Of a DNA stretch of 64,000 nucleotides, positions 9,724 to 38,930 are shown one piece after another. The notes beneath the pieces are model-generated. The model did no database searches. It had not been told where the DNA came from and saw only the letters and a program-made list of their open reading frames with translations. How positions within the stretch are numbered: the first letter of the stretch is position 1; the number at the start of each line of letters is the position of its first letter. The stretch is from a virus (Duplodnaviria; Heunggongvirae; Uroviricota; Caudoviricetes), in IMG/VR virus record IMGVR_UViG_3300005512_000002, positions 1 through 64,000 of that record. One strand, written 5' to 3'. The position numbers were made by a program, and so were the translations under genes.

Positions 9724-9734
9724 TTGACACGACC

Positions 9735-10736: not shown

Positions 10737-10786
10737 ACCCCGAGAAGTTATCTACTGGGCAGTTGTGTATTTGCCTTCATGCGGAT

Positions 10787-13089: not shown

Positions 13090-13094
13090 GCCCT

Positions 13095-16436: not shown

Positions 16437-16466
16437 GGGCTTGACTGGTCCCTGCCGGGTCACCAT

Positions 16467-20518: not shown

Positions 20519-23074
20519 TTAACTTCTGGTGGGGATCTGGCTGGGGGCCTGGCAGTCCGAAAGCCGCGTCAACCCGGTGCAGAAGTACCCGGGCTTGCGC
20601 TGGTCCTTCGCCAGGTTCACCAGGTAGACCTTGGCCCGCTCAACCGGCATAACCCGACCGGCCTGCTCGTACGCCGCCGGGAAGATGGGCACCGTGATGT
20701 CGCCGGCCAGGCCGGCCAGGTCCAGGATGGCCATCGAGCGGCCCTTGGATTTGCCCTGCTTGACCACCTTGACCCTGACGTTGCGGGTCAGGGCCATGAT
20801 CACCGCCTTCTCGTAGGGCGGGTCCTGGTCTTCCAGGTCGGCGGGCGTGAGCAGTTGCTGCTGGTGGTGCAGGTGCACGAAGGAGGTAAACGGCGAGCAG
20901 GACAGGAAGCAGCCGGTAAGTTGGCGCTCTTTCTCCAGCAGCGTGTCCAGGGGAAGCTCGGGCAGCGCGTCCTCGTCGGGCTGGTAGCGGTGGATGAGGT
21001 CCAGCCACTCGTCGGGGGTGTGCCGGGGCTTGCCGCCGCTGGTGATCTTGGCGGTGGTGTTGTGGTACTTCTCGGTGAGCTTGAGCAGTTCGGGCAGCAT
21101 GGCCACCAGGTGCGGGCGGCGGCCCAGGTCACCGTCGAGGTAGCAGTCCATGGCCCCGCACCAGATCAGGGTCTCGATCTCCGCCCGCGAGACCAGAACG
21201 TAAGGCTTGTACTCGTCGTCCTGGGTCTCGATCTTCCGGCCCTGGCGCACCACGGTACGTTTCTGGCCGGTGGGCCGGACCTCGATGCAGGCCCGCACGA
21301 AATCCTTGAAGCCCCCGCCCCCGCAGGCCGCCGCCTGGCCCGCAGGGCTGGTGATCCAGCGGGCCGAGCTTTCCGACAGGCCCTTGACCAGAGACAGGCC
21401 GAACCGGATCTCGTTCTTCCGAGGGTCGAGCTTACAGATAGCTCGGGAACGCTGGACACATGGCTGAAGAACGTGAATCCCCAGTCGGCGAGCTTCTTCG
21501 ACATAATCGGCGACCTTGAAGTTGTAGCCGTCTTCCTTGCTGGTCTTGCCACTCTCGGAGTTGATCAGGCACGTGAGGTAGGGCAAGGGGTAATTGGCTT
21601 TGAGGTAGGCGGTCTGGTAGGCGACGACCATGCCGTAGGCCGAGGCGTGGCCGAGGCAGAATCCATACCGACCAAAGGTTTCCATCAGCGACCAGACGTA
21701 GTCGGCCTGGTCCCGCGTGGCCCCCTTGGCCACCGCGCCCTTGACGAACAGCGGCTTCATCTTGGCCAGGATCTTGGGCTTCTTCTTGCCCACACCCTTG
21801 CGGACCTCGTCAGCCTGGCTCATGGTGAACCCCGCCATGTCCCGGCAGGCACGCATCAGGTCCTCCTGAAAGACCATGACCCCGTAGGTTTTCTTGAGCG
21901 TGTCGGCCAGCAACGGGTGCGGCGGGTCCGGGGGCTCGTCGCCCGAGGCACGCTTCAGGAACACCTCGGTCATGCCGGCGTCGAGCATGCCGGGGCGGAT
22001 GATGGCCACCAGCACGGCCAGGTCCCAGGGCTCCATGCGCTTGAGGTCCATGCGCTGGGCGAAGGCCCGCACATAGGGCCGCTCGATCTGAAAAACGCCA
22101 GCCAACTCACCCCTGGCCAGCATGGACCAGGTCCCTGGGTCATCCAGGGGGATCTGGTCGATGTTGAAGTCCGGCTGGTACAGCCGTCGGATCAGAAACT
22201 GGGCCTGCTCGATCACCCGCAGGGTGGTCAGGGCCAGGTAGTCCATCTTCAAGAGCCCCCGCTTCTCGGCGTCGTACATATCCCACTGGGTGGCCGGGAA
22301 GTTCTCCTCCTCGGTACGCGAGTCGGGGCTCTTGCGGTAGTAGGCGGGCAGGTAATCGGTGATGGGTCCCGGGGCGATGATGGTGCCGGCGGCATGAACG
22401 CCGGCCTGGCGGGCCTTGCCTTCCAGCCGGCGGGCGATGGCGAAAAGCTGGGGGAACCGGGCCTGCATGGCACGCAGGTCCGCACTGGCAGCCAGGGCCT
22501 TGTCCAGGGTGACATTGGGCCCCGGCGGAATGTAGTTAGAGATCTCAGCACTGAGCTTCTGGTAGTCGGGCAGGTCCAGGGCCCGGGCGGTGTCGATGAT
22601 CGCCGCCTTGGGTTTGAGGGTGCCGAAGGTGCACAGTCGGGCCACATGATCGGCTCCGTACTTGTCCATGCTGTACTGCATGACAGCGCCCCGGCGCAGG
22701 TCGTCGATGTCCATGTCCAGGTCGGGGTTGGAAATCCGGTCGGGATTCAAAAAGCGCTCGAAGGGTAGCTGCCATTTCAAGGGGTCCAGCCAATGGTGGG
22801 AGATCGCCAGGGCCCAGACGCAGACGCTGGAACAGCCGCTGCCGCGCACCACGTAGCGGATGTTCTGGTCACGCATGAAGCGGCACAGATCAGCCACGAT
22901 CAGGAAGTAGGGCGCGAAGCCCATGCGGGCGATCACGCCAAGCTCGAACTTGGCCCGCTCGACGTAGGCCGGGTCCTGGTCTACCCCGTAGGCGGCCAGC
23001 CCCCGGAAGACCTTGAAGGCCAGCAGGTCGATCTGCTGGCGGGCCTGGCTATCGTTGGTGCTTGCCGCCGTCAT
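20519..23074 (-). CDS. dnaE: DNA polymerase III alpha (DnaE) polymerase core lacking the N-terminal PHP domain
   Basis: YVERAKFELGVIARMGFAPYFLIVADLCRFMRDQNIRYVVRGSGCSS matches the DnaE segment just after PHP (Y..RL..EL.VI..MGF.GYFLIV.DFI.WAK...I.VGPGRGSAAGS); long collinear pol-III alpha similarity; stop codon 11 codons upstream of ATG in-frame. Confidence 0.8.
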   Translation of the reverse strand: MTAASTNDSQARQQIDLLAFKVFRGLAAYGVDQDPAYVERAKFELGVIARMGFAPYFLIVADLCRFMRDQNIRYVVRGSGCSSVCVWALAISHHWLDPLKWQLPFERFLNPDRISNPDLDMDIDDLRRGAVMQYSMDKYGADHVARLCTFGTLKPKAAIIDTARALDLPDYQKLSAEISNYIPPGPNVTLDKALAASADLRAMQARFPQLFAIARRLEGKARQAGVHAAGTIIAPGPITDYLPAYYRKSPDSRTEEENFPATQWDMYDAEKRGLLKMDYLALTTLRVIEQAQFLIRRLYQPDFNIDQIPLDDPGTWSMLARGELAGVFQIERPYVRAFAQRMDLKRMEPWDLAVLVAIIRPGMLDAGMTEVFLKRASGDEPPDPPHPLLADTLKKTYGVMVFQEDLMRACRDMAGFTMSQADEVRKGVGKKKPKILAKMKPLFVKGAVAKGATRDQADYVWSLMETFGRYGFCLGHASAYGMVVAYQTAYLKANYPLPYLTCLINSESGKTSKEDGYNFKVADYVEEARRLGIHVLQPCVQRSRAICKLDPRKNEIRFGLSLVKGLSESSARWITSPAGQAAACGGGGFKDFVRACIEVRPTGQKRTVVRQGRKIETQDDEYKPYVLVSRAEIETLIWCGAMDCYLDGDLGRRPHLVAMLPELLKLTEKYHNTTAKITSGGKPRHTPDEWLDLIHRYQPDEDALPELPLDTLLEKERQLTGCFLSCSPFTSFVHLHHQQQLLTPADLEDQDPPYEKAVIMALTRNVRVKVVKQGKSKGRSMAILDLAGLAGDITVPIFPAAYEQAGRVMPVERAKVYLVNLAKDQRKPGYFCTGLTRLSDCQAPSQIPTRS

Positions 23075-23170
23075 GCGTTGCCCAATAGGAAAAGGCCCAC
23101 TGCATCAGGTCGATCTTCAGGCCGTACAGCTTGACCAGAGCCGTGGCCAGCAGCATGAGCATGCGATGTT

Positions 23171-24166
23171 TCATAGCGACGCTGCGGCCGGTTCGTCCGT
23201 GATCGCGTCCAGGTCGTGGTCCACCATCTCAGCCACCAGCCCCTGGAAGTCCACCTGCGGCTCCCAGCCCAGAACCTTTCGGGCCTTGCGGGGGTTGGCG
23301 ATCAGGACATCCACCTCGGCCGGCCGGTAGAAGCGCGGGTCCACGGTGACGTAATCGCAGTAATCGCCCAGGCCCGCGTGCTCGAAAGCACACTGGCAGA
23401 AGTCAGCCACGCTGTGCGTCTCCCCGGTACCGACCACGTAGTCGTCCGGGTAAGCCTGCTGCAGCATCAGCCACATGGCCTTGACATAGTCGCGGGCATG
23501 GCCCCAATCCCGCTTGGCGGCCAGGTTGCCCAGGGCCAGGGTCTGCTGCGTACCGTCCTTGATACGGGCCACGGCCCGGGTGATCTTGCGGGTCACGAAG
23601 TTCGGCCCCCGCCGGGGGCTCTCGTGGTTAAAGAGAATCCCGTTGCAGGCGAACATCTTGTAGGCCTCGCGGTAGTTGACCGTCACCGCGTAGCCGTACA
23701 GCTTGGCGCAGGCGTAGGGCGAGCGGGGGTGGAAGGGCGTACTCTCATCGCAGGCCACCTCGCCGTGCTGGCCGCCAAAGAGTTCGCTGGTCGAGGCCTG
23801 GTAGAACCGGGTGAAGAAGCCCGAGGCCCGAATGGCCTCCAGGCAATACAGGACCCCCAGGCCGCTGGCCTCCAGGGTGTAGGCCGGCTGGTCGAAGCTG
23901 GTCCCCACGTGGCTCTGGGCGGCCAGGTTGTAGAACTCGTCGGCCCGGGCCAGCCGGCACAGCTTCACCAGGCTGGGCAGGTCTCCCAGGTCGCCCTCGA
24001 CGACCTCCAACCTGGAGTGGCCGATCAGGTGCTCGGCGCAGCCCGGATCATCCCCCGAGCTTCGCCGCTTGAGGCCATAGACCTTGTAATTCATATCCAA
24101 CAGCAGGTCGGCCAGATAGCTGCCGTCCTGCCCGGTGATGCCGGTGATAATGGCGGTACGTTGCAT
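23171..24166 (-). CDS. gmd: GDP-mannose 4,6-dehydratase
   Basis: MQRTAIITGITGQDGSYLADLLLDMNYKVYGLKRRSS is a near-consensus GMD N-terminus; SDR YxxxK (YACAKLYGY); AGGAGA RBS. Confidence 0.8.
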   Translation of the reverse strand: MQRTAIITGITGQDGSYLADLLLDMNYKVYGLKRRSSGDDPGCAEHLIGHSRLEVVEGDLGDLPSLVKLCRLARADEFYNLAAQSHVGTSFDQPAYTLEASGLGVLYCLEAIRASGFFTRFYQASTSELFGGQHGEVACDESTPFHPRSPYACAKLYGYAVTVNYREAYKMFACNGILFNHESPRRGPNFVTRKITRAVARIKDGTQQTLALGNLAAKRDWGHARDYVKAMWLMLQQAYPDDYVVGTGETHSVADFCQCAFEHAGLGDYCDYVTVDPRFYRPAEVDVLIANPRKARKVLGWEPQVDFQGLVAEMVDHDLDAITDEPAAASL

Positions 24167-24185
24167 GCTTTCTCCTGCTCCGGGC

Positions 24186-25028
24186 TCAGCCCGGCAGTTG
24201 CCAATTCTCATCAATCTCATAGCCCAATTCGATCAGTTCCTGACCGACAACCTCCTTGAATACGGCGACTTCCTCGACGGTCCACCGATGCCACCTTTGG
24301 TTACAGCCGGCGACTTGGCCAAAGCTCGAATGCTGGTCGGCTTCCCGGCTGCCGGCTTCAATTTCGGCGGTCCGGATCAAGGCCCTGTCATCGGGCTGCA
24401 GGCCCAGACGCTGAATGAGCAAGCTGACCGTCAAGGCCGGGGCCGCCACCAGGTCCTCGAACTTCACCACCCGATAGTTGGGCAGGTAGTGCAGACAGTC
24501 GGCCACCACCCGCAGACGGTTGCGGGCACCCAGGCACTGCATACGGAAATAATCCAGCCGGTCCCGCTGCTGAAACTCACTGTCCCTCTCGCCCTTGGTC
24601 CACCGCACCGACTCAATGTGATTGCGGGGATCTCGCACCAGAGTCACAAACTGCCAGTCTTGTATATTGCCCGGGAGCCGGACCAATTCCTCGCGGCCCC
24701 AACGGTTGATGCTCTCGCCTTCGTAAGGAGCGGGCACCTGATCGCTGTCCGATCGTTCGCCCCACCAGTTCCACACGTAGTTGTAAAAGACCAGGCTGGG
24801 CGTCGTGGTAGTCGCCAGGCAGTCCCGGATCGCCGTCAGCGGATCAACCTCCTTCGCCAGGTGCACGGTGGGACAGACACGCGGCGGCATGGTGCACAGG
24901 TAACCGTCCTCGGCGTACGGGCAGCCGTCATTTTGGCCCGTGGGCGACAGGGGTCGGCCCTGCAGCATCTTCAGGAAGAAGCACGAGCCGCCCCGGGGAT
25001 AGACGAAGAAATAAATGGGATTGGTCAT
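24186..25028 (-). CDS. Sulfotransferase-family protein
   Basis: FVYPRGGSCFFLKML (5'-PSB-like PRSG[ST] motif) and VTLVRDPRNHIESV (3'-PB-like RDPR motif). Confidence 0.5.
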   Translation of the reverse strand: MTNPIYFFVYPRGGSCFFLKMLQGRPLSPTGQNDGCPYAEDGYLCTMPPRVCPTVHLAKEVDPLTAIRDCLATTTTPSLVFYNYVWNWWGERSDSDQVPAPYEGESINRWGREELVRLPGNIQDWQFVTLVRDPRNHIESVRWTKGERDSEFQQRDRLDYFRMQCLGARNRLRVVADCLHYLPNYRVVKFEDLVAAPALTVSLLIQRLGLQPDDRALIRTAEIEAGSREADQHSSFGQVAGCNQRWHRWTVEEVAVFKEVVGQELIELGYEIDENWQLPG

Positions 25029-25855
25029 GATTCATGGTCCTTCCAGTCACAGGTGCCACCCGGCGCCCGACCATTGATGCGGTCGGCATGCTCAACGACC
25101 CATCGGTACAGCCGCAGGTCCCATTGATTGCCCTCGGCGATGCGCCGGTGCAAGTCAGCATCCAGATCGACCACCTGCCGCTGGCGGGACCGACGGTTCA
25201 ACCAGGGTAAAGGCTCGGACTTCCAGCCCAGACGGGTGGCCAGAACCTCCGCGTCCTGCTGCAACTGCTCAAAACGGCCAATCCAAAAGAATCGCTGCAG
25301 GTTGGCGATGGCCCGCTCGTAATCGAGCATGGTGAGCCGTGGCAGGCAACCAGGTTCTGCCAGCCGCACGCCCGGCACCCGCTCGGTGATGGGTCCGTAT
25401 TGTTCCAGAAGCGGGCCGGCCGCCAACATCCGCGTCATGTGATTGTGTGCCCTGCCCCACTGCCAGGTTGCCGTCCCCGGTTCAAGACTTCCGTACCAGG
25501 CCTCGTCGAACCACCGCGACAAGTCCGCCCCGCGAATCTGAGCCACCACAGTGTCATCAGGAGCCTTGGAGACCTGCGTGTATTCGTACTCGCTGAGCAC
25601 CCGCTCCAGAGGGTCGCGCACGATGGTCAGGTAGCGTGGCGATCCGACCAGTACGCCGTGCAACCCGACGGGCATGTGTCCCCAAACCAGCTTCAAGCCG
25701 TTGATAGGGCCCTGGCCCGGCACTAATACCGTCCGGGTAGCGGCAGCATTCTGCACCCACAGGTGCTCGCCGGACCGCAAGTGACTGTACAACCACTGGC
25801 CAAGGCTGTTGCCGGCGGTCTTCACCAGGTGCACGAAGATCAAGGGCTGGCTCAC
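25025..25855 (-). CDS. Sulfotransferase family 2-like protein
   Basis: FVHLVKTAGNSL (HIPKTGGT-type 5'-PSB) and YLTIVRDPLERVLSEYEY (3'-PB RDP.ER..S.Y). Confidence 0.55.
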   Translation of the reverse strand: MSQPLIFVHLVKTAGNSLGQWLYSHLRSGEHLWVQNAAATRTVLVPGQGPINGLKLVWGHMPVGLHGVLVGSPRYLTIVRDPLERVLSEYEYTQVSKAPDDTVVAQIRGADLSRWFDEAWYGSLEPGTATWQWGRAHNHMTRMLAAGPLLEQYGPITERVPGVRLAEPGCLPRLTMLDYERAIANLQRFFWIGRFEQLQQDAEVLATRLGWKSEPLPWLNRRSRQRQVVDLDADLHRRIAEGNQWDLRLYRWVVEHADRINGRAPGGTCDWKDHES

Positions 25856-26913
25856 TGCAAGGTCTCCAAAAAGCCCTTGACCCGCTCGAACTCGGCGTCG
25901 AAATCCACCACCTCACGGAAGCGTTTGACCGTGCGTTCGGACCAGGCCGGCCAGTCGGCCGCCGCCCGCTCCAGTTGGCGCGCTACGCCCGCCACGCCGT
26001 GCCTGGCCAGGTCAATGCAGGTCTGCCCGTCCGTCATCAGGTGGCTGGCGATCTGGTCGCGGATCTCCTTGAGGCTGACCACCATGGGGCGTCCGCAGGC
26101 AAAGGCGTTGTGGATGTTGAACCCGTAGCCGTCACCCCCAGCCTTGACGTGCCAGACGAAGCCGTGCTCGCGCAGGGCGTCTTCGGGCCGATAGACCGCC
26201 CGGTCCGGATTGCCCGCCCCGTAATTATGGAAAACCCAACCCTTGGTCACCAGCCGGCCGAAAAGCTGTTTGAACTGATCCAGGTACGGAGGCCGTTGGT
26301 AGTGCATCAGGTTGCACAGGCTCTTGGGCTTGGCCACCGGCCAGGGCTGAAACTGATCGAGGCTAAACTCCTGGTGGTAGCGCACGTGCTGAACGCCTTC
26401 CGGGGGCTGGAAGCTGGTGGAGTTGAGCAGGTTCTTAACTCCGGGCGGCAGCGACCAGCCGACGTTGCCCATCTGGAACACGTGCTTGGCCTGCGGGCAG
26501 TATTGCTCGCAGAACTTTTCGTAACGAGCGAAATGGCCCGGGATACTGGACAGCACCAGGTCGAACCCCATCTGTTTGGCCAAGGGCAGAGTCACGCAAC
26601 GGTACACCCGCTCGCGGTAGACCGGGTCTTCGCACAGGTAGATGCCATCTCCGGTGGTGGTGAAATACTTGTTGATGCAATGGCGAGGCCCGTGCTCCTG
26701 CTCGACCGGCTGGCCCCAGATGTCCTGGGGCGTGGCCCGGCTGGTGTCCAGGTACTGCTGGGCGGTGTTGACGTGTGGGTAGACCGCCCAGTAGTCCTCG
26801 TGAAACCACTCCAGGCCGATGGGCCGGTAAAGCTCCCAACCCAGCCGGTCCTCAAAGAGGATTCGCAGGGACTCGTACAGGTCGGTGTGATGACAGTCGG
26901 CCAGAACTCGCAT
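25852..26913 (-). CDS. Putative glycosyltransferase (GT-B-like C-terminus), uncertain
   Basis: FVWHVKAGGDGYGFNIHNAFACGRPMV resembles GT-B donor-binding region; within the sugar cassette. Confidence 0.35.
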   Translation of the reverse strand: MRVLADCHHTDLYESLRILFEDRLGWELYRPIGLEWFHEDYWAVYPHVNTAQQYLDTSRATPQDIWGQPVEQEHGPRHCINKYFTTTGDGIYLCEDPVYRERVYRCVTLPLAKQMGFDLVLSSIPGHFARYEKFCEQYCPQAKHVFQMGNVGWSLPPGVKNLLNSTSFQPPEGVQHVRYHQEFSLDQFQPWPVAKPKSLCNLMHYQRPPYLDQFKQLFGRLVTKGWVFHNYGAGNPDRAVYRPEDALREHGFVWHVKAGGDGYGFNIHNAFACGRPMVVSLKEIRDQIASHLMTDGQTCIDLARHGVAGVARQLERAAADWPAWSERTVKRFREVVDFDAEFERVKGFLETLQ

Positions 26914-26920
26914 GACTTGC

Positions 26921-27691
26921 CTAACTCCCCCACCGCTTGGGTTCGCCGGCCGGCAGCCGCCATTGCGGATCGCCGACCAGCAGGTTGTTGAACGGCTCGC
27001 GGATCGACCAGTCGTTCACTCCCAGGGCCGGGTTGTCGAACGGACGATTGAAGCGGGCATTCAGGCCCGCTCCCCCCCACTTGGTCTGCAAGTAAACCGC
27101 CATGCGGTGGGCGTTATGCTGATAGAGTCGCAGCAGTCGCGGCTCTCGAAGATTCACGCTGGCCGCGTAGGAGTGGCAGAACTGGCCCTCAGCCAGCACC
27201 CGCTTCTCACCCACACCGTTGAAACCGCTACGACGGAAGTAGTCGGCGTCCTCGTGATAAGCAGGCCAGAAGTTCTCGTCGAAATACCCACCCATCTCGA
27301 CGCCCAGTCGGGTCAGGCCAAAGCAGTGCAGATTGCGGAACAGGTAAATGCTGTGAGACTGCTCGGCCTCGTGCTGTTCGATGAACGCCAACATCTCGGC
27401 CAGCGGCTTGTCCAGCACCGCCGACACCGACATGACCAGGGCCAGATCGCAGCCCTGCCCCATGGTGCGGCGGATACCCAGGTTCCAGCTTGCCGCCACC
27501 CCCAGGTTGTAAGGACAGTCATACACCTCGGCCCCGCCGGCATGGGCCTGCTGGCACAGGGCCCGCACCTCGGGGATATCGAGGTTGCAGACCATGATCA
27601 ATTTGGTCAGATCGCCCACGTCCTTGAGCTTCTGGGCCACAAGCTCGGGGGCGTTGGTCACGGGAATGACGACGCGGTAGTCCATGTTCAC
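26921..27691 (-). CDS. Glycosyltransferase family 2 (GT-A)
   Basis: YRVVIPVTNAPEL N-terminus, VAASWNLGI, YHEDADYFRR (ED motif) typical of GT2. Confidence 0.55.
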   Translation of the reverse strand: MNMDYRVVIPVTNAPELVAQKLKDVGDLTKLIMVCNLDIPEVRALCQQAHAGGAEVYDCPYNLGVAASWNLGIRRTMGQGCDLALVMSVSAVLDKPLAEMLAFIEQHEAEQSHSIYLFRNLHCFGLTRLGVEMGGYFDENFWPAYHEDADYFRRSGFNGVGEKRVLAEGQFCHSYAASVNLREPRLLRLYQHNAHRMAVYLQTKWGGAGLNARFNRPFDNPALGVNDWSIREPFNNLLVGDPQWRLPAGEPKRWGS

Positions 27692-27694
27692 GCC

Positions 27695-28186
27695 TCAGCG
27701 ATTGGTTACCCGCCAGCAGTCCCAGTAATCCCAGGGCAGGCGGTAGTCGTCGCCTTTGCTCTCGGCGAGCGTGCTGGTCGAGAAGAACATCACGATGCTG
27801 TCGCAGTCCAGGTCCTGCCAGCCGTTGAAGAACCCCGGTGGAATCCAGAGCAGTTGCGGTTTTGCACTACTCAACACCCAACGGGTTGCCCAAGGCAACT
27901 CGATCGCCACCCGGCGGCTGTCGCCACTGGCCATGTAGCTCTTGGCGTTCGCCAACATGGCCGGGGTCATGGACACCGTGCCCACCAGGATAGCCCCCTG
28001 GGCCACGTAAACATACTTGCCCTCGTGCTGGTGGCCATGCCAGGCCCGCACGCACTCGGGATTGTGGTTATGCACCTGGTAGAACCGCTTGACCGGAGTC
28101 ATGTCGAAATCGTTGGCGAAGGTAATCTGGCCGCGATCATCGACGGCCAGGCCGCCCTCAACGATGCAGGGGCAAGGGGAGTCCAT
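27695..28186 (-). CDS. RmlC-like cupin sugar epimerase/isomerase (dTDP-sugar 3,5-epimerase / FdtA-WxcM-like)
   Basis: FANDFDMTPVKRFYQVHNHNPECVRAWHGHQHEGKYVYVAQGAILVGTV cupin/epimerase-like. Confidence 0.5.
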   Translation of the reverse strand: MDSPCPCIVEGGLAVDDRGQITFANDFDMTPVKRFYQVHNHNPECVRAWHGHQHEGKYVYVAQGAILVGTVSMTPAMLANAKSYMASGDSRRVAIELPWATRWVLSSAKPQLLWIPPGFFNGWQDLDCDSIVMFFSTSTLAESKGDDYRLPWDYWDCWRVTNR

Positions 28187-29120
28187 CGTCGCTCCTTAGA
28201 AACTGGGCGTTGGAATAGTTCGGGTCCCGGTGATTGCGCACCCGGCCGCTCTGCACCAGATGGGCGATCTCCCGCACTCCATCGTCCAAACTGAAGGCTG
28301 GTTGCCAGCCGGTGGCCTGGATCTTGGCGGTGCTGACCTGGTAGTTGCGCAGGTCGTCCGGGCTGATATCGCTTTCGTCGATCAGGGCGTGGGGCACGTA
28401 GCGTCGGATCACCTCGGCGATCTGGCCAAGTCGCTTATTGGCCCAGGCCACGTTGTGCACACCTTGAAGATTTTGAGTGATCGCCCAGAACAGCACGCCG
28501 GCGGCGTCAGCCACGTGCATGAATGGCCGCCACTGCTGCGGACCGATGATGCTGACCGGCTCGCCAGCCGCCGCCCGGGCCGACAACAGGTTGACCACCA
28601 GGTCCAGGCGCAGGCGGGAGTAGGCGTCCCCGCTGCCGAAAAGAGTGCCAAATCGAGCCACGAAATGGTCCGCCACCCGTCCGGTGACGATCTGCTCGGC
28701 GGCGTACTTGCTCTTGGCATACAGCGAGATGGGTCCAGGTGTGCTGGTTTCGTCGAGCACCCCGTCCTGCCGGCCGTAGACCGAGCAGGTCGAGGCAAAG
28801 ATGATCCGCCCCCGGTAGTTCTGCACCAGCCATTCGACCGCTTGGGTGTTGATGGCCATGGTGTGCTCGGGGTCGCAGTCGCAGGCTCCGTCACCCACCA
28901 GGGCGGCCAGCCAGACCACCACGTCATAGTGGGGCAGAATCTGGGCCAGCCGGCGCCGGTCACGCACGTCGGCATGGATGAAGTGCACCGGCTTGAAGTA
29001 GCGGTGCTCGTAGGTCAGATTATCCAGGACGGTGACCGACAGGCCCGCCCGGGCCAGTTGGTCGGCAAGGTGACCGCCGATATAGCCGGCTCCGCCCACG
29101 ATGAGAATGCGGTTGCTCAT
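28158..29120 (-). CDS. NAD-dependent sugar epimerase/dehydratase (SDR family)
   Basis: ILIVGGAGYIGGHL (GxxGxxG) and YAKSKYAAE (YxxxK). Confidence 0.65.
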   Translation of the reverse strand: MSNRILIVGGAGYIGGHLADQLARAGLSVTVLDNLTYEHRYFKPVHFIHADVRDRRRLAQILPHYDVVVWLAALVGDGACDCDPEHTMAINTQAVEWLVQNYRGRIIFASTCSVYGRQDGVLDETSTPGPISLYAKSKYAAEQIVTGRVADHFVARFGTLFGSGDAYSRLRLDLVVNLLSARAAAGEPVSIIGPQQWRPFMHVADAAGVLFWAITQNLQGVHNVAWANKRLGQIAEVIRRYVPHALIDESDISPDDLRNYQVSTAKIQATGWQPAFSLDDGVREIAHLVQSGRVRNHRDPNYSNAQFLRSDDGLPLPLHR

Positions 29121-30007
29121 GATTCAGACAGTTCCCTGTAATCCTCGGTCTCCTCGGCCACCTGGGCGAGCATGTCGTCCCAGGACGGCTTGTCGATACC
29201 AGTCGCCTGGCGAAAACGGTCATCGACCATGGTGCGGTCGCAGAGCACGCTCTCGTCCGGCTTCACACGCAAGTCGAGATCGAAATGACGGGAGATCACG
29301 CCAAGCAAATGCCACTTGTTGATCTCAGGCCCGGCTACCTGGTACAGACCATGCAGGTCCGGGTGCTCCAGTATGACCAGCTTGATGATGCGGGCCAGTT
29401 CGTTGGTGGTCACACCGCTGTACAAGGCCCGCACGTAGCCATTGACCTGTTTACCCTTCTGGCTGAGAACCCATTCCAGCAGGCTGTAGCGATTGAACAC
29501 CTCCCGTCCGATGATGCTGGTGCGCAGGGTGAGTGTATTGTGCTGGTCCACCACCTCGCCCAGGGCCTTGCTCATGCCATAGTGATCCAGGGGATCGGTG
29601 GGCGAATCTTCGGTGTACTGCCCGTGGAGACCAGAGAACACGCAATCGGTACTGACGTGGATCAGCCGATTGCTGGCCTGACTCAGATCGTGCGGTAGGA
29701 TGCTGTTGACCCGCACCAACTCGCGGGGATCACCAGTGACACATCGCGGCTTGATGACCCCCGCACAATTGATCACGAACTCCGGCTCGCGCTCGAAGAT
29801 GATCGCATCGTAGTCGTGAGCATCGACTTCGTGTATCCAATAAACGTCGGTCACGGACATGCCAGGAAGATGTTGAACCGTATCGCACTGGTGGAACATC
29901 CGCACCAGAGCGGTGACCTCGAAGCGGCCGTCCTGAGCCAGCACCTGGGTTACCTTGTGTCCCAGCATCCCACTGGCGCCCGTCACCATAACGCGGATCT
30001 TGCTCAC
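29117..30007 (-). CDS. dTDP-4-dehydrorhamnose reductase (RmlD)-like NAD(P)-dependent reductase
   Basis: KIRVMVTGASGMLG and YGMSKALGE (YxxxK); GTGA overlap with the upstream methyltransferase stop; alternative ATG 29989. Confidence 0.55.
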   Translation of the reverse strand: MSKIRVMVTGASGMLGHKVTQVLAQDGRFEVTALVRMFHQCDTVQHLPGMSVTDVYWIHEVDAHDYDAIIFEREPEFVINCAGVIKPRCVTGDPRELVRVNSILPHDLSQASNRLIHVSTDCVFSGLHGQYTEDSPTDPLDHYGMSKALGEVVDQHNTLTLRTSIIGREVFNRYSLLEWVLSQKGKQVNGYVRALYSGVTTNELARIIKLVILEHPDLHGLYQVAGPEINKWHLLGVISRHFDLDLRVKPDESVLCDRTMVDDRFRQATGIDKPSWDDMLAQVAEETEDYRELSES

Positions 30008-30576
30008 AGCTTGCTCACTTTCTCGGCCATGGACTGGCAGGTCTCGCACGGTAGGCCGGCCAAAGCCACCCGCAATTCTTCGTAGGTCACCCGATCCATG
30101 CACGGCGGCGGGTCCAGGGGAACCGGCTGCGGGATGCAAGTGAACCCGCATAATCCGGGTTCCGGGGGCAGGAACCAGCAGGTCAGATCCCGCTGCGTGG
30201 TCAGGATGTAATGCAGCAGCTTGTAGGCATCCCCGCTGAACTGCGGGGCACACTGTGCTTCGCAGGTGGGGATCATGTCGTGCAGGAAGATCACGCCCCC
30301 GGAAGCAAGGTGCTCGACGCTGTGGTTGTAGTCCCGCACCACCTGGCGGAACTCATGGCAGGCGTCGATGTAGATCACATCGAAGACTTCATCACCCACC
30401 TCATGAGCAAAGAAGTCGTCGGTGGTCATCTGGAAGGTAGCCGGGTACTTGGCGTCCACCGAGAACTTCTCGTTGGCCCGCACCGTCCCGAAGGTGGCAC
30501 CCTGAAAGACGCCAAGCTCCAGGTACCGCTTGCGGTCCATGTCCGGCACAGCATTGATAATATCGGGAATGGCCAC
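30004..30576 (-). CDS. Class I SAM-dependent methyltransferase (small, O-MT-like)
   Basis: YLELGVFQGATF (motif I), VIYIDACH, GGVIFLHDM. Confidence 0.5.
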   Translation of the reverse strand: MAIPDIINAVPDMDRKRYLELGVFQGATFGTVRANEKFSVDAKYPATFQMTTDDFFAHEVGDEVFDVIYIDACHEFRQVVRDYNHSVEHLASGGVIFLHDMIPTCEAQCAPQFSGDAYKLLHYILTTQRDLTCWFLPPEPGLCGFTCIPQPVPLDPPPCMDRVTYEELRVALAGLPCETCQSMAEKVSKL

Positions 30577-30579
30577 GAC

Positions 30580-31308
30580 TTATTGCCCCTTGATCCAAAG
30601 GGTCTGTTGGAAATCCAGCACGCACTGCCAGCCGTGGTCGGCCAGGTAACACTTGGCCAGCCGGCTCTTGCCGCCGCCGGGGAAGTTGTTGTCGTCGATC
30701 AGGATCACCGTGCCGTCGTGCACCTGGGGCCAGGCGGCCTGCAGTTCGGCCAGACAATGGGCCTGACATGGGTTGATCAGATGGCCGAACTCGGCCAGGA
30801 TCTGCTCGTCGGTGCTTTGCCGGTACTCCTGGGGCAGGCCCTGAGCGGCCAGCCACCTGACGATGGGCACGATCGGATAGTCGTAACTGTCCAGGTACAG
30901 CAGGTCGATCCCGCCCCCACCCGAATGCACCTGGGGCATGCCATCCTGCTTGAAGTCCAGGGCCCCGGGCTGGCCCAGGCTCAGCAGGTAGGCCACCGAA
31001 TCCTGACAGGTGAGCGTGCGGACCGGGGCCCACGGGTCGGTGAGCCGGGCACACACGCTCAGGTTGTCGGCACTGATGTCCACCGTCCACAGGTGTCCGC
31101 CGTAGCGGCTCAGCACCTGGCAGAACAGGACGCTGGAGTACCCGGCCCCGTAATCGTCTTCCTGGCGGACACAGCCGGTCTCGACGATCCGGGTGCCGCC
31201 GCGTTGCAGGAACAGGTTCAAGGCCGCCCGCATGGTGGGCCAGCGGCTGTCCATCCGGGCCCGGTGGGTCTGATCGAACCAGTTATTCACCAAGGCGAAG
31301 TTGTGCAT
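30580..31308 (-). CDS. Putative class I SAM-dependent methyltransferase
   Basis: RIVETGCVRQEDDYGAGYSS, IDLLYLDSYDY, GTVILIDDNNF resemble Methyltransf_24-like cores. Confidence 0.4.
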   Translation of the reverse strand: MHNFALVNNWFDQTHRARMDSRWPTMRAALNLFLQRGGTRIVETGCVRQEDDYGAGYSSVLFCQVLSRYGGHLWTVDISADNLSVCARLTDPWAPVRTLTCQDSVAYLLSLGQPGALDFKQDGMPQVHSGGGGIDLLYLDSYDYPIVPIVRWLAAQGLPQEYRQSTDEQILAEFGHLINPCQAHCLAELQAAWPQVHDGTVILIDDNNFPGGGKSRLAKCYLADHGWQCVLDFQQTLWIKGQ

Positions 31309-31310
31309 GG

Positions 31311-32342
31311 CTACAAGGTCTCCAGAAAGTTCCGCCAGCCGGCCTTGGCAGCGTCCTTGGAAAACAACTCCACGGCCCGCTTGCGCCCAGCCCGGGAAAC
31401 AGCAGCCGCCAGATCGTCGTTCTCCATCAGGTGTCGAATGATGCCCTGGGCCTCGACCACGTCGTCGCAGGTAAAGCCGCTGATGCCCTCCTGGATCAGG
31501 TCCGGAACCTCGTACAGGTCGTGGCCCGGGAAGTAGTCGGCGTTGCCCAGCTTCGGACCCACCGCCACGATGGGAATGCCGGTCATCCAGGCCTCGATGA
31601 AGTTCAGCGTGTAGCTGGCCGGATGGGTGCCCACGTACAGGTACACCCGGTGGTCGCGCATGGCAGCTTTAAGCTCGTCGAAGCTCACCTTGCCCTGATT
31701 GGCACTGCCGGCCGCCTCGTTGCCCGGACCGTAGAGCTTGGTGGGAAAGCCGCTGGTCACCTGCTTCCAGAAGTCGTAGTTGCACTGCCGCACCCGGTCG
31801 GGCAGGGCCTGGTTGAACGTGATGACGGCTTTCTCGTGCCCGGTCCAGCCACCGAACTCCTCGGGGTCCTTGTAGAACCGGATCAGGGCGTCCTCGCCCA
31901 AGTACCCTGGGATGGTCCGCTCCCGGGGCGAGTAGCGCACCACCTTCAGGCCGTCCTGACGGTAGCGGGCCAGACCCATCTCGACCGGCTGAATGCTCTG
32001 GCCGATGGTCCGCCACACCACGGGTTTGTGCCGCATGGCGGGCCAGTTGCCGGCGATCCACTTGGGCAGGTGCATGACCACCACCGCGTCGAAGCGATCG
32101 ACAAACTTGCGGGTCAGGTGATCCTTGGCATCCTGACCAGGATACTGGGCGCACAGGGCGTGCCAGGCGGCCAGGTCCTCGGGGTCGTACTGAATGTTGG
32201 CCAGACCGGGGCGCATGCCATCGCCGGAGACCGCCGGGTCGATGTAGCAGCCAGGCGAAAAGACATAGTGGCCAAGCTCGCCGAGCAGGCTGACCTCGTC
32301 GTACTCCAGGATCGAATGGCAGGACAGGTACAAAATCCTCAT
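31311..32342 (-). CDS. Glycosyltransferase family 4 (GT-B)
   Basis: RVYLYVGTHPASYTLNFIEAWMTGIPIVAVG and GFTCDD...LAAAVSRAGRKRAVELFS match the GT4 C-terminal domain. Confidence 0.55.
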   Translation of the reverse strand: MRILYLSCHSILEYDEVSLLGELGHYVFSPGCYIDPAVSGDGMRPGLANIQYDPEDLAAWHALCAQYPGQDAKDHLTRKFVDRFDAVVVMHLPKWIAGNWPAMRHKPVVWRTIGQSIQPVEMGLARYRQDGLKVVRYSPRERTIPGYLGEDALIRFYKDPEEFGGWTGHEKAVITFNQALPDRVRQCNYDFWKQVTSGFPTKLYGPGNEAAGSANQGKVSFDELKAAMRDHRVYLYVGTHPASYTLNFIEAWMTGIPIVAVGPKLGNADYFPGHDLYEVPDLIQEGISGFTCDDVVEAQGIIRHLMENDDLAAAVSRAGRKRAVELFSKDAAKAGWRNFLETL

Positions 32343-33817
32343 GGCTGAGCGGCCCCTTCCCATTGACCGCTGAGCTTCAGCACGTTGAAGGCATCGCGGT
32401 CGGCTTGCTTCCTGGCGTTGAAATCGGCCCAATCGGCGTCCGCCTTCACGTCGTAGGCGGGAAAAAGGTACTTGAAATCGTCGTCGCCCTCGGCAGGGAT
32501 GTGCAGGTCCACCCGGTCAGCCACCTCGCAGGTCCGGTCGTACATATCGGACGTGAAAAGCTCGTGCTGCATCTCGCTGCGCTGCCGGATGCTGTAGACA
32601 CCCTGGTGTTCCTGGCCGGCGGCCAACCCGTCACCCACGGAGCCCTTGCCGATGCGTGAGCAGACCGCCTGCAGGACCGCATCTTCCGGCTTGGCGTAGT
32701 GGCAGTCACCGGCGACCACCACGGGCACGTCCAGTTGGCGGGCGACCTCCAGGATCTGCGGCACGGCCTGCATGTAGCGGTCGAAGTCGATCGGCTGCAC
32801 CTCGCAGTAGTACCGGTCGCCGAACACGTCGCGGCATCGCTTCATGACCTGGAAGCTGCGGGTCGGGTCGTAAAGATAGACGGGCACCTTCCGACCGTCC
32901 TCCAGCACCCGTAAGGTCTGCTGCTGGTTTTCCCGGGGCGGCTCGAACTGCTGCAGGTGCCAGGCCACGGCCCCCTTGAAGCAGCCCGAGAGCACGATCA
33001 GGCCCTGGTGGTGCTCGGCCAGCATCTGCCAGTCGATGCGCGGCACGTGGTAAAAGTGGTCCCGGCACGCGGCAGTCGCCAGCAGGCACAGGTTGTGGAA
33101 CCCGACCTGGTTCATGGCCAACACCGTCTGGTGATACTCGAAGCGCACCGGCTTGTCGGTCTCGTCCACGTAGGGCACACGCACGTCGTCCACCAGGTAG
33201 AACTCGCAGCCGATCAAGGGCTTGACACCCACCTCCCGGCAGGCCTGGTAGAACTTGAAGGCCGCGAACAGATAGCCGTGGTCGGTCAGGGCGATGGCCT
33301 GCTGGCCGTTAATCGCGGCCTGCTCGGCAATCTGCCGAGGGCTGGCCACACCATCCAGAAACGAATACATGCTGTGCACGTGCAGGTGGCAGAACCGGTC
33401 GTCGGTGGCCAGGGCCCTGCCGCGATACAGGGAGTAGCCGCCGTCAGCCGACAGGTCCAGAATCTTGCGGGCCAGGCGTCCCAAGTCCGGCACGGCCAGG
33501 GTGCTCACGCCGCCGAGGTCCTGACTGGCGATCAAGTAGGCCTTGCTGCGCACCCCGTCCAGCAGGACCGTCCAGAGCGACGCAAGGCCGGGGAACTGGC
33601 TTCCGGGGGCCCAGCTTCCGGGGGGGTCGATCTGCCCTTGCGGTCCCACGGCGATCGGCACCACGTGGTAGGTGGCCCCGGTGTCCGGGTTGGTGGCCAG
33701 ATACCCTTCGGCGTGCATGTTCACACCCAGCGCGTCCGCCCCGCGATCGGCAAAGAATGCCGTCGCCGTGCGGGCTTCAAGCTCGGATGCCGGGTTGTAG
33801 TCCGGTCCTCGGGGCAT
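32339..33817 (-). CDS. PHP-domain protein corresponding to the detached N-terminal PHP domain of DnaE, with a ~140-aa N-terminal extension
   Basis: CHLHVHSMYSFLDGVASPRQIAEQAAINGQQAIALTDHGYLFAAFKFYQACREVGVKPLIGCEFYLV matches the DnaE PHP opening; later LSGC, E, CHY motifs; ends where DnaE PHP would join the palm. Confidence 0.7.
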   Translation of the reverse strand: MPRGPDYNPASELEARTATAFFADRGADALGVNMHAEGYLATNPDTGATYHVVPIAVGPQGQIDPPGSWAPGSQFPGLASLWTVLLDGVRSKAYLIASQDLGGVSTLAVPDLGRLARKILDLSADGGYSLYRGRALATDDRFCHLHVHSMYSFLDGVASPRQIAEQAAINGQQAIALTDHGYLFAAFKFYQACREVGVKPLIGCEFYLVDDVRVPYVDETDKPVRFEYHQTVLAMNQVGFHNLCLLATAACRDHFYHVPRIDWQMLAEHHQGLIVLSGCFKGAVAWHLQQFEPPRENQQQTLRVLEDGRKVPVYLYDPTRSFQVMKRCRDVFGDRYYCEVQPIDFDRYMQAVPQILEVARQLDVPVVVAGDCHYAKPEDAVLQAVCSRIGKGSVGDGLAAGQEHQGVYSIRQRSEMQHELFTSDMYDRTCEVADRVDLHIPAEGDDDFKYLFPAYDVKADADWADFNARKQADRDAFNVLKLSGQWEGAAQP

Positions 33818-33891
33818 ACGGCACCCGACTCCTCACACAAGGGACATCTGTGACAAGTCCCCTATCGACTCATCACACAGCGAACCTAAGC

Positions 33892-35142: not shown

Positions 35143-35144
35143 AA

Positions 35145-38850: not shown

Positions 38851-38930
38851 GGTCGTTGGCTCCATACAGGGGCGGCTTGGCCGCGCCCGTTACGCCTCCC
38901 CCGCGTGGCGGCTGCAGCACTAGCGGCGCC

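Follow-up and report, generated by a model that had tools for sequence, protein, structure and literature searches.

A DnaE polymerase probably encoded as two genes in a clade of uncultured tailed phages, with the PHP gene of some members inside a probable glycan-biosynthesis cassette

We consider it likely that the phage studied here encodes DnaE as two genes, with the PHP domain proofreading in trans, that the split is ancient and shared by a whole clade, and that a portable cassette for glycan biosynthesis surrounds the PHP gene. The DNA analysed (the window, 64,000 nucleotides) comes from a large, high-GC tailed phage that is uncultured and whose relatives are found as contigs of 90–190 kb. 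The original prediction had placed both halves of DnaE on the minus strand in N-to-C order with 11 co-directional genes between them, which was confirmed (Table 1). Of the two explanations it offered, a natural two-subunit arrangement of PHP exonuclease and polymerase with a captured glycan module is supported, because about 35 family members are split at one and the same residue and the nine PHP metal ligands are invariant.

Table 1. Features of the split DnaE and the surrounding cassette
Feature	Position	Strand	Evidence or content
PHP-less DnaE polymerase core	20519..23074	-	palm, thumb, fingers, HhH, C-terminal region
Spacer between GMD and pol, downstream cassette end	23075..23170	-	96 nt; holds ~40-codon hydrophobic ORF
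GDP-mannose 4,6-dehydratase (GMD)	23171..24220	-	Pfam GDP_Man_Dehyd E 1e-121
Putative sulfotransferase 1	24186..25028	-	Sulfotransfer_3 E 3e-4, NoeE E 1.4e-3, both below cut-off
Putative sulfotransferase 2, window-specific	25025..25855	-	phrog_3347 galactose-3-O-sulfotransferase E 2.4e-6
Conserved cassette protein, probably GT-B-type glycosyltransferase	25852..26913	-	motif GYGFNIHNAFACGRPMVV
GT-A/GT2-like glycosyltransferase	26921..27691	-	phrog_29879 galactosyl transferase E 2.9e-17; ortholog in L002
RmlC-like cupin, putative sugar 3,5-epimerase, window-specific	27695..28186	-	dTDP_sugar_isom E 1.4e-5, below cut-off
NAD-dependent sugar epimerase/reductase, SDR family, window-specific	28158..29120	-	Pfam Epimerase E 2.9e-36
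RmlD-like 4-ketoreductase, window-specific	29117..30013	-	RmlD_sub_bind E 2e-19; TIGR01214 E 3e-19
Methyltransf_24 SAM methyltransferase, window-specific paralog	30004..30576	-	Pfam E 8.5e-10
Methyltransf_24-like methyltransferase, conserved	30580..31308	-	Pfam E 2.9e-5; orthologs in L002, L087
Glyco_trans_1_2 glycosyltransferase, first gene after PHP	31311..32342	-	Pfam E 2.7e-6
PHP subunit of split DnaE	32339..33817	-	N-domain, then DnaE-type PHP, then short C-terminal helix
DnaE-type PHP domain	residues ~139-463 of 32339..33817	-	HHDHEHCDH metal site
Clade-specific PD-(D/E)XK-fold domain	residues 1-138, 33404..33817	-	N-terminus of PHP ORF
Spacer upstream of PHP	33818..33891	-	74 nt; two TGTGTGA(G/T)GAGTCG copies around small hairpin
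GT4 glycosyltransferase, upstream half of cassette	33892..35142	-	phrog_2170 E 2e-24
GT4 glycosyltransferase, first cassette gene	35145..36734	-	phrog_2170 E 5.6e-25; orthologs present

The PHP and polymerase-core genes

The sole Pfam match of the PHP ORF (492 aa) was the PHP domain (residues 144–341, E 1.4e-40). The core ORF (851 aa) matched DNA_pol3_alpha (profile positions 15–260 of 260), DNA_pol3_finger and HHH_6, and the Pfam scan gave neither a PHP nor an OB-fold match in it. The two products aligned to complementary parts of intact DnaE references: PHP ORF and core ORF, respectively, to residues 4–325 and 332–1107 of the DnaE of Streptomyces phage Maneekul, to 3–315 and 328–862 of M. 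tuberculosis DnaE1 (5lew), and to 39–320 and 359–1049 of the phrog_405 profile. This bears out the predicted DnaE type of the PHP ORF and the predicted start of the core where DnaE continues past PHP. The match of the PHP ORF extends over the whole DnaE-specific PHP domain, to its FPxYD...DxDW end, and its structural model gave E values of 1e-20 to 1e-17 against DnaE PHP domains versus 1e-6 or weaker against stand-alone PHP enzymes; membership of a non-DnaE PHP family was thus disfavoured by at least 11 orders of magnitude.

All nine PHP metal ligands are kept in the window subunit and are invariant in 22 homologs. Published work uses the HHDHEHCDH motif as the criterion by which a PHP is judged active (PMC12926913). 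Since all nine are retained, the subunit is probably an active proofreader, a predicted 3'-5' exonuclease. In the core, the catalytic PDLDMD (residues 117–122) and D278 are both present.

The first 140 or so residues of the PHP ORF form an additional domain that does not belong to DnaE, a correction to the original prediction. Among 1.84 billion representative proteins, this domain was restricted to the N-terminus of these PHP proteins. It has no conserved D/ExK triad, and any role given to it is therefore a guess; catalysis is improbable, and docking or binding to DNA are candidate functions.

Distribution of the split among related phages

Matching families of stand-alone PHP proteins (about 35) and PHP-less cores (36) were found on phage-like metagenome contigs of 90–190 kb, with ten pairs located on the same contig. 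The 36 PHP-less homologs of the core scored 652–887 bits, full-length bacterial DnaE at most 427 bits. The break point is common to the roughly 35 PHP family members, divergent as they are (35–54% identity); most of these proteins end 7–29 residues past the DxDW motif, and the FERFLN palm motif is found at median residue 102 in split cores versus 395 in full-length DnaE. The order DnaB-primase-SSB-RuvC-PDDEXK-...-PHP-gap-pol was kept in eight independent assemblies. Elsewhere DnaE is fused in one frame, at 75 other viral loci and in the individually inspected DnaEs of isolated phages, the one exception seen being Clostridium phage CS266P1, where an HNH endonuclease gene interrupts DnaE at a different site. 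No family of complete PHP-less polymerases was found outside the clade, and the DnaEs of PB1-like phages, Bixzunavirus and Stanwilliamsviridae are full length.

The gap between PHP and pol measures 9.3 kb in the window and 6.4 kb in L087, reaches 9.6 kb in L002, exceeds 10 kb in L003 and is shorter in L005 (3.2 kb), L088 (2.5 kb), L089 (1.6 kb) and L007 (about 1.2 kb). Its content differs among clade members (sigma factor, MazG, integrase, HNH, or sugar genes). In L007, L088 and L089 the same split is present without any sugar genes, and the proposal that a cargo cassette caused it is not supported. L089 formed the basal branch of a rough, unbootstrapped NJ tree. Selfish elements at this locus in relatives include an HNH gene that follows PHP, an intein within pol, an integrase located in the gap and, beside pol, GIY-YIG or TnpB genes.

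The pattern suggests that the split is old and was inherited across the whole phage clade from a single ancient fission. It would predate the cassette, an order drawn from the unbootstrapped NJ tree and from a patchy distribution; alternatively, the cassette may be ancestral and have been lost three times.

The glycan-biosynthesis cassette

Sugar genes lie on both sides of PHP: with the two GT4 genes upstream of it, which the original prediction had left out, the cassette occupies 23171–36734 (about 13.5 kb). Adjacent genes overlap or are at most 7 nt apart; longer spacers (70, 74 and 96 nt) are confined to the ends of the cassette and to the position upstream of PHP. Judging from this packing, the cassette is probably co-transcribed with the replisome genes. 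The repeat count in the 74-nt spacer is not above chance, being reached by 18 of 100 shuffles, and no att-like or flanking direct repeats, for which a search of the cassette ends had been suggested, were found. GC in the cassette (0.59–0.64) is slightly under that of the flanks (0.65–0.67), and GC3 is 0.75–0.82 in the window-specific genes versus 0.87–0.88 in PHP, pol and GMD, with the RmlD-like gene lowest in the cassette (0.75). L171 (40% GC) and L172 (35% GC) have this module as one contiguous run of genes in unchanged order, with neither PHP nor pol in it. Since the uninterrupted module occurs in these unrelated low-GC large phages, the PHP gene here lies within a portable cassette.

GMD reached the equivalog-level NCBIfam model TIGR01472 (417.5 bits, cut-off 415), and its translation probably begins about 20 codons into the ORF. 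Orthologs in L002, L003, L087, L171 and L172 were found for GMD (64–69% identity), for the glycosyltransferase directly after PHP (55–64%) and for the conserved protein at 25852–26913 (37–49%). The last had no HMM match; its GYGFNIHNAFACGRPMVV motif, which we take to resemble the GT1/GT4 nucleotide-sugar-binding motif, suggests that it is probably a GT-B-type glycosyltransferase. The GT4 gene nearest PHP has orthologs in L002, L003, L005 and L087, and counterparts at 28–29% identity in L171 and L172; the other gave a weak PDB match to the chlorovirus glycosyltransferase B736L. The two predicted sulfotransferases stand as putative, their motifs being present and their HMM matches weak. One carries VRDPRNHIES and is window-specific within the clade (its ortholog in L171, a Sulfotransfer_3 gene, is 31% identical), and the other has the PAPS-binding-like motifs HLVKTAGNS and VRDPLERVLS. 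Two gene limits were revised: ORF 29117–30253 is over-extended (the gene is about 29117–30013), and the glycosyltransferase after PHP starts not at 32432 but at an ATG at 32342, which overlaps the PHP stop as ATGA. By this overlap, its translation is coupled to that of PHP.

Alternative explanations and known systems

A recent insertion of sugar-gene cargo into an intact dnaE, leaving halves still functional or decaying, would account for their exact complementarity and N-to-C order, for the slightly lower GC of the cassette and for the clustering of selfish elements at this locus in relatives. It is very improbable given an identical break point in about 35 divergent members, three of them without sugar genes, conserved active-site residues in both halves, the lack of flanking direct repeats, a cassette that runs on upstream of PHP beyond the gap, and a unique N-terminal domain that co-occurs with the split. 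The module that is contiguous without a PHP gene in L171 and L172 argues against this reading and equally against another, that the PHP protein is no polymerase subunit but a phosphoesterase in sugar metabolism or sulfation, such as a CpsB-like phosphatase or a pAp phosphatase that would remove the sulfotransferase by-product. Its place within the cassette would in that case be functional. The gene does lie within the cassette, coupled in translation to a glycosyltransferase, and PHP-family pAp phosphatases and RNase AM are among the weak structural matches (ranks 24–28), but no stand-alone PHP enzyme comes within 11 orders of magnitude of the DnaE PHP fit and the PHP protein and a PHP-less pol co-occur one-to-one also in members that lack sugar genes, and we find this role scarcely credible.

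It is also unlikely that the core is self-sufficient and that the PD-(D/E)XK-fold plus PHP protein is a separate nuclease, acting in repair, in recombination or in the breakdown of host DNA, with no more than a common descent linking it to the DnaE N-terminus. The PHP domain of E. coli alpha contributes to polymerase stability, no other candidate proofreader (DnaQ) was seen among the window ORFs scanned, and strict co-occurrence on the same strand in conserved order points to a joint role; although the nuclease-fold N-domain and the neighbouring PDDEXK_1, RuvC and UDG genes suggest a nuclease context, and PHP and pol lie up to 10 kb apart with unrelated genes between, the canonical PD-(D/E)XK catalytic residues are not conserved. 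Rejoining after expression, by split-intein trans-splicing or by splicing of an intron, has almost no chance of being correct. Inteins are known in the pol core and primase genes of relatives, and what interrupts the Clostridium phage DnaE is a gene for an I-HmuI-like endonuclease; however, neither window ORF has a Hint or intein domain, the PHP ORF ends just 29 residues past its last conserved PHP motif, pol begins MTAAS with no intein C-half, the window holds no Rfam intron or other RNA family, and the interval carries 11 functional-looking genes.

Intact bacterial and phage DnaEs, C-family alpha subunits whose PHP proofreader is active (among them T. aquaticus Pol III alpha, M. tuberculosis DnaE1 and the DnaE-like polymerases of actinophages), have the same domains in the same order as the window pair and share its nine PHP metal ligands and catalytic aspartates, and Bixzunavirus and Stanwilliamsviridae have a similar neighbourhood (helicase, primase, SSB, DnaE, RecA, resolvase). 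Unlike them, the clade has two polypeptides broken at the PHP/palm linker and encoded 1–10 kb apart, an extra PD-(D/E)XK-fold domain on the window PHP subunit, and a core without a Pfam OB-fold match. E. coli Pol III alpha-epsilon, a complex of separately encoded polymerase and exonuclease, offers a possible analogy. There, alpha keeps an inactive PHP domain as the docking site of epsilon, a DnaQ/DEDDh protein, whereas the window exonuclease would be the ancestral PHP domain itself. Cyanobacterial DnaE is likewise encoded by two distant genes (dnaE-n, dnaE-c), split far downstream in the polymerase and healed by protein trans-splicing via a split intein; the window split lies at the PHP/palm boundary without intein halves. 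Selfish elements target the locus in window relatives as they do interrupted polymerase genes such as the CS266P1 DnaE, but homing-endonuclease, intron and intein interruptions hit conserved catalytic motifs and bring an endonuclease with them, and the window gap has no endonuclease and a break at a domain linker. T4-like jumbo phages encode a minimal, phage-specific Pol III (C-family) catalytic module as two stand-alone proteins; it has neither PHP nor any accessory domain, its split falls within the nucleotidyltransferase module, and it accompanies a family-B replicase (Iyer et al. 2021, PMC7824862). The window has instead a full-size DnaE, apparently the replicase, split between PHP and palm.

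In the arrangement that we favour, an ancestral DnaE would have been broken once, anciently, at the structural PHP/palm boundary, and the PHP subunit would have gained its clade-specific N-terminal domain. The two products would assemble non-covalently into a DnaE-like enzyme in which PHP proofreads in trans, much like epsilon on alpha in E. coli. The interval between the genes would have become a plasticity hot spot gathering accessory and selfish genes. Here and in some relatives the PHP gene would have come to lie inside the cassette of GT4 pair, GT, GT-B and GT2 glycosyltransferases, O-methyltransferases and GMD, which in the window appears enlarged by two sulfotransferases, a cupin and two reductases. 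GMD and capsid glycosylation are known in chloroviruses and virion glycosylation in mycobacteriophages, and rhizobial NoeL/NolK/NoeI/NoeE form a route to methylated, sulfated fucose. Like viral GDP-6-deoxyhexose pathways, the window operon combines GMD, epimerase/reductases, O-methyltransferases, putative sulfotransferases and several glycosyltransferases, but unlike known viral glycan pathways it sits in the replication module and wraps a polymerase-subunit gene. Its product is probably methylated or sulfated 6-deoxyhexose glycans made from GDP-mannose, for which virion proteins or the host envelope would be the likeliest acceptors.

The two halves of a DnaE polymerase

The sole Pfam match of the PHP ORF is the PHP domain (residues 144–341, E 1.4e-40), whereas the pol ORF matches DNA_pol3_alpha (from profile position 15), DNA_pol3_finger and HHH_6, with no PHP match in Pfam. 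Residues 142–474 of the PHP ORF correspond to residues 4–325 of the intact 1,161-aa DnaE of Streptomyces phage Maneekul, and residues 34–844 of the pol ORF to its residues 332–1107. For M. tuberculosis DnaE1 the two ORFs cover residues 3–315 and 328–862, respectively, and for the phrog_405 profile positions 39–320 and 359–1049. The pol ORF retains the catalytic PDLDMD motif and D278, and it matches DnaE proteins in the PDB with E 1e-108. The AF2 model of the PHP ORF is confident (pLDDT 88.3, pTM 0.83); a Foldseek search with it returned DnaE structures as the top 18 matches (E 1e-20 to 1e-17), and stand-alone PHP phosphoesterases (RNase AM, the Cv1693 pAp phosphatase, HisK) reached only E 1e-6 or weaker. 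Since their coverage of intact DnaEs is complementary, the two ORFs together make up a DnaE that is divided at the PHP/palm linker. The DnaE domains lie on two polypeptides rather than one, in ORFs separated by 9,264 nt and 11 genes, and the same two-polypeptide arrangement occurs in every clade member examined. The original prediction of complementary DnaE parts is borne out by HMM comparison, and for the PHP ORF by structural modelling too: the PHP ORF is not closer to a non-DnaE PHP family, and no complete PHP-less polymerase family was found outside the clade. The prediction was right in assigning a DnaE-type PHP domain, but it missed an additional N-terminal domain of that protein.

Nine metal ligands (H144, H146, D155, H180, E205, H229, C279, D371 and H373) are invariant in 22 aligned PHP subunits. 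The nine-residue signature HHDHEH[C/H]DH is the published criterion of an active PHP proofreader (PMC12926913). Judged by its sequence, the PHP subunit of the window carries this signature and would resemble the active proofreading exonuclease of M. tuberculosis DnaE1. The break point is constant across the split family. Most PHP proteins end 7–29 residues beyond a conserved FPxYD...DxDW motif, and the FERFLN palm motif lies at median residue 102 in 36 split cores versus 395 in 77 full-length DnaEs. Neither ORF contains an intein or Hint domain by Pfam, and the tail after the last PHP motif is 29 residues long.

The additional domain (N-domain, residues 1–138 of the PHP subunit) has the alpha-beta-beta-beta-alpha-beta core fold of the PD-(D/E)XK superfamily. 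A semi-conserved D/E stands at the end of one strand, with nothing more of the canonical site, and no invariant acidic or lysine column was found in residues 1–138 of the PHP subunits. Lacking conservation of the canonical D...(D/E)xK residues, the domain probably has no catalytic activity. When 1.84 billion representative proteins were searched with its profile, it turned up solely as the N-terminal part of the split-family PHP proteins or of fragments of them; a few other low-scoring matches were long and multi-stretch and were judged spurious. Being exclusive to these proteins, the N-domain counts as a synapomorphy of the split family.

Features of the window and of loci compared with it (transcription of the minus-strand block runs from high to low positions)
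Feature	Positions	Strand	Remarks
RecE/RecT	1954-4101	+	flanking block
DNA methyltransferase, dCMP deaminase, SbcD-like nuclease, RecD-like helicase		+	flanking blocks
Ribonucleotide reductase, large subunit	50771-54130	+	flanking block; 1,119 aa
DUF4326 protein	12816-13664	+
UvsX/RecA-like recombinase	45601-46815	-	first of the minus-strand genes named here
DnaB-like helicase, DnaG-like primase, SSB		-
RuvC-like resolvase	38931-39929	-
DUF5664 dNTP pyrophosphohydrolase	38149-38865	-
PDDEXK_1 nuclease		-
Two GT4 glycosyltransferases		-	upstream of PHP ORF
Direct repeat, two copies	33826-33839; 33866-33879	-	spacer upstream of PHP ORF
PHP ORF	32339-33817	-	492 aa
Gap genes 1–3		-	Glyco_trans_1_2 glycosyltransferase, two Methyltransf_24 methyltransferases
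Gap genes 4–6		-	RmlD-like reductase, SDR epimerase/reductase, RmlC-like cupin
Gap genes 7–8		-	GT2-like transferase (phrog_29879, E 3e-17), probable GT-B protein
Gap genes 9–11		-	two putative sulfotransferases, GDP-mannose 4,6-dehydratase (GMD)
GMD/pol spacer	23075-23170	-	96 nt; about 40-codon hydrophobic ORF (MKHRMLMLLATALVKLYGLKIDLMQWAFSYWATH...) running into pol start
pol ORF (DnaE core)	20519-23074	-	851 aa
Small genes		-	after pol ORF
Rad52-like protein	17472-18233	-
SPFH protein		-
GIY-YIG endonuclease	16098-16466	-	end of minus-strand block
Portable glycan cassette	23171-36734
L005, DUF4326 protein	11467-12288		first gene of PHP-pol gap
L171, cassette module	1-10963		207 kb contig, locus 40% GC
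L172, cassette module	932-9739		193 kb contig, locus 35% GC
L177, interrupted DnaE-like gene	5983-9551		Clostridium phage CS266P1, OP172775.1

Extent and age of the split family

A search of 5.8 billion proteins returned about 35 PHP-only proteins of 445–583 aa, 35–54% identical to the PHP ORF. Most of them align over their full length, N-terminal extension included, several lie on contigs of 90–190 kb, and fused ordinary DnaEs score far lower. The corresponding search with the pol ORF gave 36 PHP-less cores at 652–887 bits, followed by full-length bacterial DnaEs at 427 bits or less; for ten PHP/pol pairs, both members were found on contigs of equal size. Two clade members are present in IMG/VR (loci L007 and L079), and PHP and pol are fused in one frame at 75 other IMG/VR loci. 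No clade member was found in 185,579 GTDB species genomes, where all matches were ordinary bacterial DnaEs aligning from query residue ~130–142. In the INPHARED phage collection, too, no clade member was found; isolated phages gave no relative above 33% identity and no PHP protein standing alone with the N-domain. Three phages considered as PHP-less candidates (PB1-like JG024, Bixzunavirus Bread and Streptomyces phage Circinus) all have a full-length DnaE, and faecal 'Bacteriophage sp.' records, considered likewise, proved to be fused. Among the profiles, phrog_7513 (461 positions) has the length and coverage of a PHP-only protein and phrog_11165 (782 positions) those of a PHP-less DnaE core, so that among catalogued phages some may have a split of independent origin, or else DnaE genes that are interrupted or wrongly annotated.

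The DnaEs of isolated phages that were inspected individually are fused, with the exception of Clostridium phage CS266P1, which is of a different kind. Its DnaE-like gene is annotated as two hypothetical proteins with an I-HmuI-like HNH endonuclease gene between them. The site of the break, the catalytic PDxD motif, points to a probable interruption by an intron or homing endonuclease.

The split is old and extends through the whole clade. Eight independent assemblies have DnaB, primase, SSB, RuvC, PDDEXK, PHP, gap and pol in this order, with the gap as a hot spot of variation. In the window it spans 9.26 kb and holds the sugar genes listed in the table. On other contigs of the clade it measures 9.6 kb in L002 (HNH, NUDIX, sugar genes, UDP-galactopyranose mutase), over 10 kb in L003, where the locus covers part of it (including NUDIX, DUF2130 and sugar genes), 6.4 kb in L087 (sugar genes), 3.2 kb in L005 and L006 (DUF4326, methyltransferase, NT5C, tyrosine integrase), 2.5 kb in L088 (five small genes of no known function), 1.6 kb in L089 (MazG), and about 1.2 kb in L007 and L079 (a sigma-70-like gene and one gene of no known function). 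It had been proposed that a cargo cassette inserted into dnaE caused the split. L007, L088 and L089 have neither the sugar genes nor the upstream GT4 pair and so show the split without the cassette, for which a comparison with related phages had been suggested. In a rough neighbour-joining tree of the cores, made with no bootstrap, the clade forms a monophyletic group with a long stem, and L089 is basal. From these two observations the split is probably older than the sugar genes. A search of the cassette ends for the att-like direct repeats of an insertion gave only low-identity, chance-level matches, and no recombinase lies in the gap of the window (its relative L005 has the tyrosine integrase there). 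The sugar cassette as the cause of the polymerase split is thus not supported.

Selfish or regulatory genes cluster round the split polymerase across the clade (the window, L002, L005, L007, L087 and L088). The L002 core carries an intein with LAGLIDADG in addition to the HNH gene of its gap, an IS605 TnpB adjoins pol, after it, in L088, and a GIY-YIG endonuclease adjoins pol in L087 and lies near it in the window. No HNH, GIY-YIG or LAGLIDADG gene is among the 11 gap genes of the window, and no Rfam family (group I and II intron RNAs included) and no tRNA was found in the window. The family of the gap gene DUF4326 of L005 also has a member in the window, outside the gap.

The sugar cassette and its surroundings

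The window, at 65% GC, represents the part of a large phage genome that serves replication and recombination; an unbroken run of minus-strand genes extends between about 47.8 kb and 16.1 kb. Three distinct recombination systems are present (RecE/RecT-like, Rad52-like and UvsX/RecA-like). In the ribonucleotide reductase large subunit the profile match begins only at residue 248, which leaves some 250 aa at the N-terminus unassigned. A scan of 19.5–38.5 kb for promoters and terminators gave counts equal to those of shuffled sequence.

Eleven sugar-related genes lie between PHP and pol, as had been described, but the sugar genes are not confined to that interval, some being upstream of PHP. Two gene models were corrected: the glycosyltransferase gene that follows PHP begins at 32342, so that its ATG and the PHP stop share the sequence ATGA, and ORF 29117-30253 had been over-extended. 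GMD matches the NCBIfam equivalog TIGR01472 (417.5 bits against a cut-off of 415), and the two SDR proteins and the cupin match RmlD, RmlC and Epimerase models far below equivalog cut-offs. The putative sulfotransferases have PAPS-motif-like strings (5'-PSB / 3'-PB) and weak HMM matches below cut-off (Sulfotransfer_3, 21.4 against 27 bits; NoeE, E 1.4e-3; phrog_3347, E 2.4e-6). PDB sequence searches with two unannotated cassette proteins gave no match. Cassette genes overlap by 4 nt or sit at most 7 nt apart, and spacers are confined to the PDDEXK/GT4 (70 nt), GT4/PHP (74 nt) and GMD/pol junctions. The GT4/PHP spacer holds a 14-nt direct repeat, TGTGTGA(G/T)GAGTCG, flanking a small hairpin; these are its only two copies in the window, a number reached in 18 of 100 shuffles and so not clearly above chance.

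Orthology mapping defines a conserved core in L002, L003 and L087, comprising the upstream GT4 pair, the glycosyltransferase GT343, the methyltransferase MT242, the probable GT-B protein GTB353 and GMD; the GT2-like gene also has an ortholog in L002. Within the clade, the two sulfotransferases, the cupin, both reductases and the second methyltransferase, MT190, are specific to the window. In GC3, an aspect of the codon usage for which a comparison of cassette and flanks had been proposed, the window-specific genes are lower (0.75–0.82) than PHP, pol and GMD (0.87–0.88). The lower values suggest that the window-specific genes are later additions.

The same module occurs contiguously and in the same gene order in two unrelated low-GC large phages (L171 and L172): GT4, GT4, GT343 (56–57% identity), further genes including a methyltransferase, GTB353 (37–40%) and then GMD (65–68%). 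A sulfotransferase precedes GMD in L171 only (31% identity). A Volactin-like actin homolog lies before this module and a trypsin-like protease after it. As the module contains neither PHP nor pol in either phage, the cassette is a portable unit, and it seems to be a glycosylation system widespread among phages. In the split clade, the PHP gene lies inside the cassette, between the second GT4 and GT343; it is possible that PHP moved into the cassette, that acquisition took two steps, or that a later rearrangement produced the layout. Close homologs of GMD, about 75 in number, occur on other large contigs, L171 and L172 among them. Its nearest relatives are such phage-like proteins, and the cellular matches (at most 61% identity) come from mixed phyla, so no host is called.

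Proposed working and significance

PHP and pol are complementary, retain their active-site residues, are strictly co-inherited and co-oriented, and are tightly packed with replisome genes. We propose that the two proteins would assemble as a non-covalent DnaE in which PHP proofreads in trans; the scanned ORFs of the window showed no DnaQ homolog. The N-domain may help assembly or DNA binding, its docking on the core or DNA replacing the lost covalent link, and the whole block would be co-transcribed. The cassette, in turn, would convert GDP-mannose via GDP-4-keto-6-deoxymannose into 6-deoxyhexoses, to be transferred to some acceptor, O-methylated and perhaps sulfated.

The most plausible acceptor would be virion proteins or the host envelope, for which the glycosylation of chloroviruses and mycobacteriophages offers known analogues. 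One could also suppose that the cassette sits in the replisome operon, round the proofreader gene, because its product decorates phage DNA as a methylated or sulfated 6-deoxyhexose hypermodification to which the PHP subunit is adapted; we consider this very improbable. A free PHP with a DNA-binding-like PD-(D/E)XK-fold domain would suit the proofreading or handling of modified DNA, and in a milder version the detachable proofreader would allow replication fidelity to be tuned, but as parts of the same proposal these are given equally little credence. No thymidylate-synthase-like base hydroxymethylase, the enzyme that supplies the acceptor in DNA glycosylation of the T4 type (hmC glucosylation and relatives), and no PurZ was found among about 60 window ORFs scanned. 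The DUF5664 (PF18909) protein has a dNTP (dATP/dGTP/dUTP) pyrophosphohydrolase domain of a family characterised in 2-aminoadenine (Z-genome) phages; since canonical-genome phages have it too, it is not diagnostic of hypermodification. Among the window ORFs, DNA as the glycan acceptor has no support, and virion proteins or the host envelope are preferred.

Several known systems are akin in kind. Intact DnaEs with an active PHP domain lack the fission at the PHP/palm boundary, and the cyanobacterial split DnaE uses an intein, unlike the split described here. Neither E. coli alpha-epsilon nor polymerase genes interrupted by endonucleases, introns or inteins, such as the DnaE gene of Clostridium phage CS266P1, show the combination seen in this clade. 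The minimal split Pol III module of T4-like jumbo phages (PMC7824862) is a further relative in kind. None of these unites PHP/palm fission without an intein, a novel N-terminal domain of the PHP subunit and a gap that is both long and variable, and literature searches gave no description of fission, N-domain and variable gap combined. The split DnaE is not new in category; as a natural experiment on the PHP domain it is clear and well supported.

In DnaE, the PHP domain is regarded as the ancestral proofreader and, at the same time, as structural support for the polymerase. A lineage with PHP as its own subunit across about 35 divergent genomes is a ready system for asking whether PHP can work in trans as a proofreader, in what way it binds the palm and what role falls to the PD-(D/E)XK-fold domain. 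The cassette, with GMD, methyltransferases and possible sulfotransferases and a gene order kept between large phages of 35% and 65% GC, is a candidate for a widespread phage glycosylation system. For the polymerase family, the split indicates that C-family replicases can evolve toward an alpha-plus-epsilon organisation via fission, without recruiting DnaQ.
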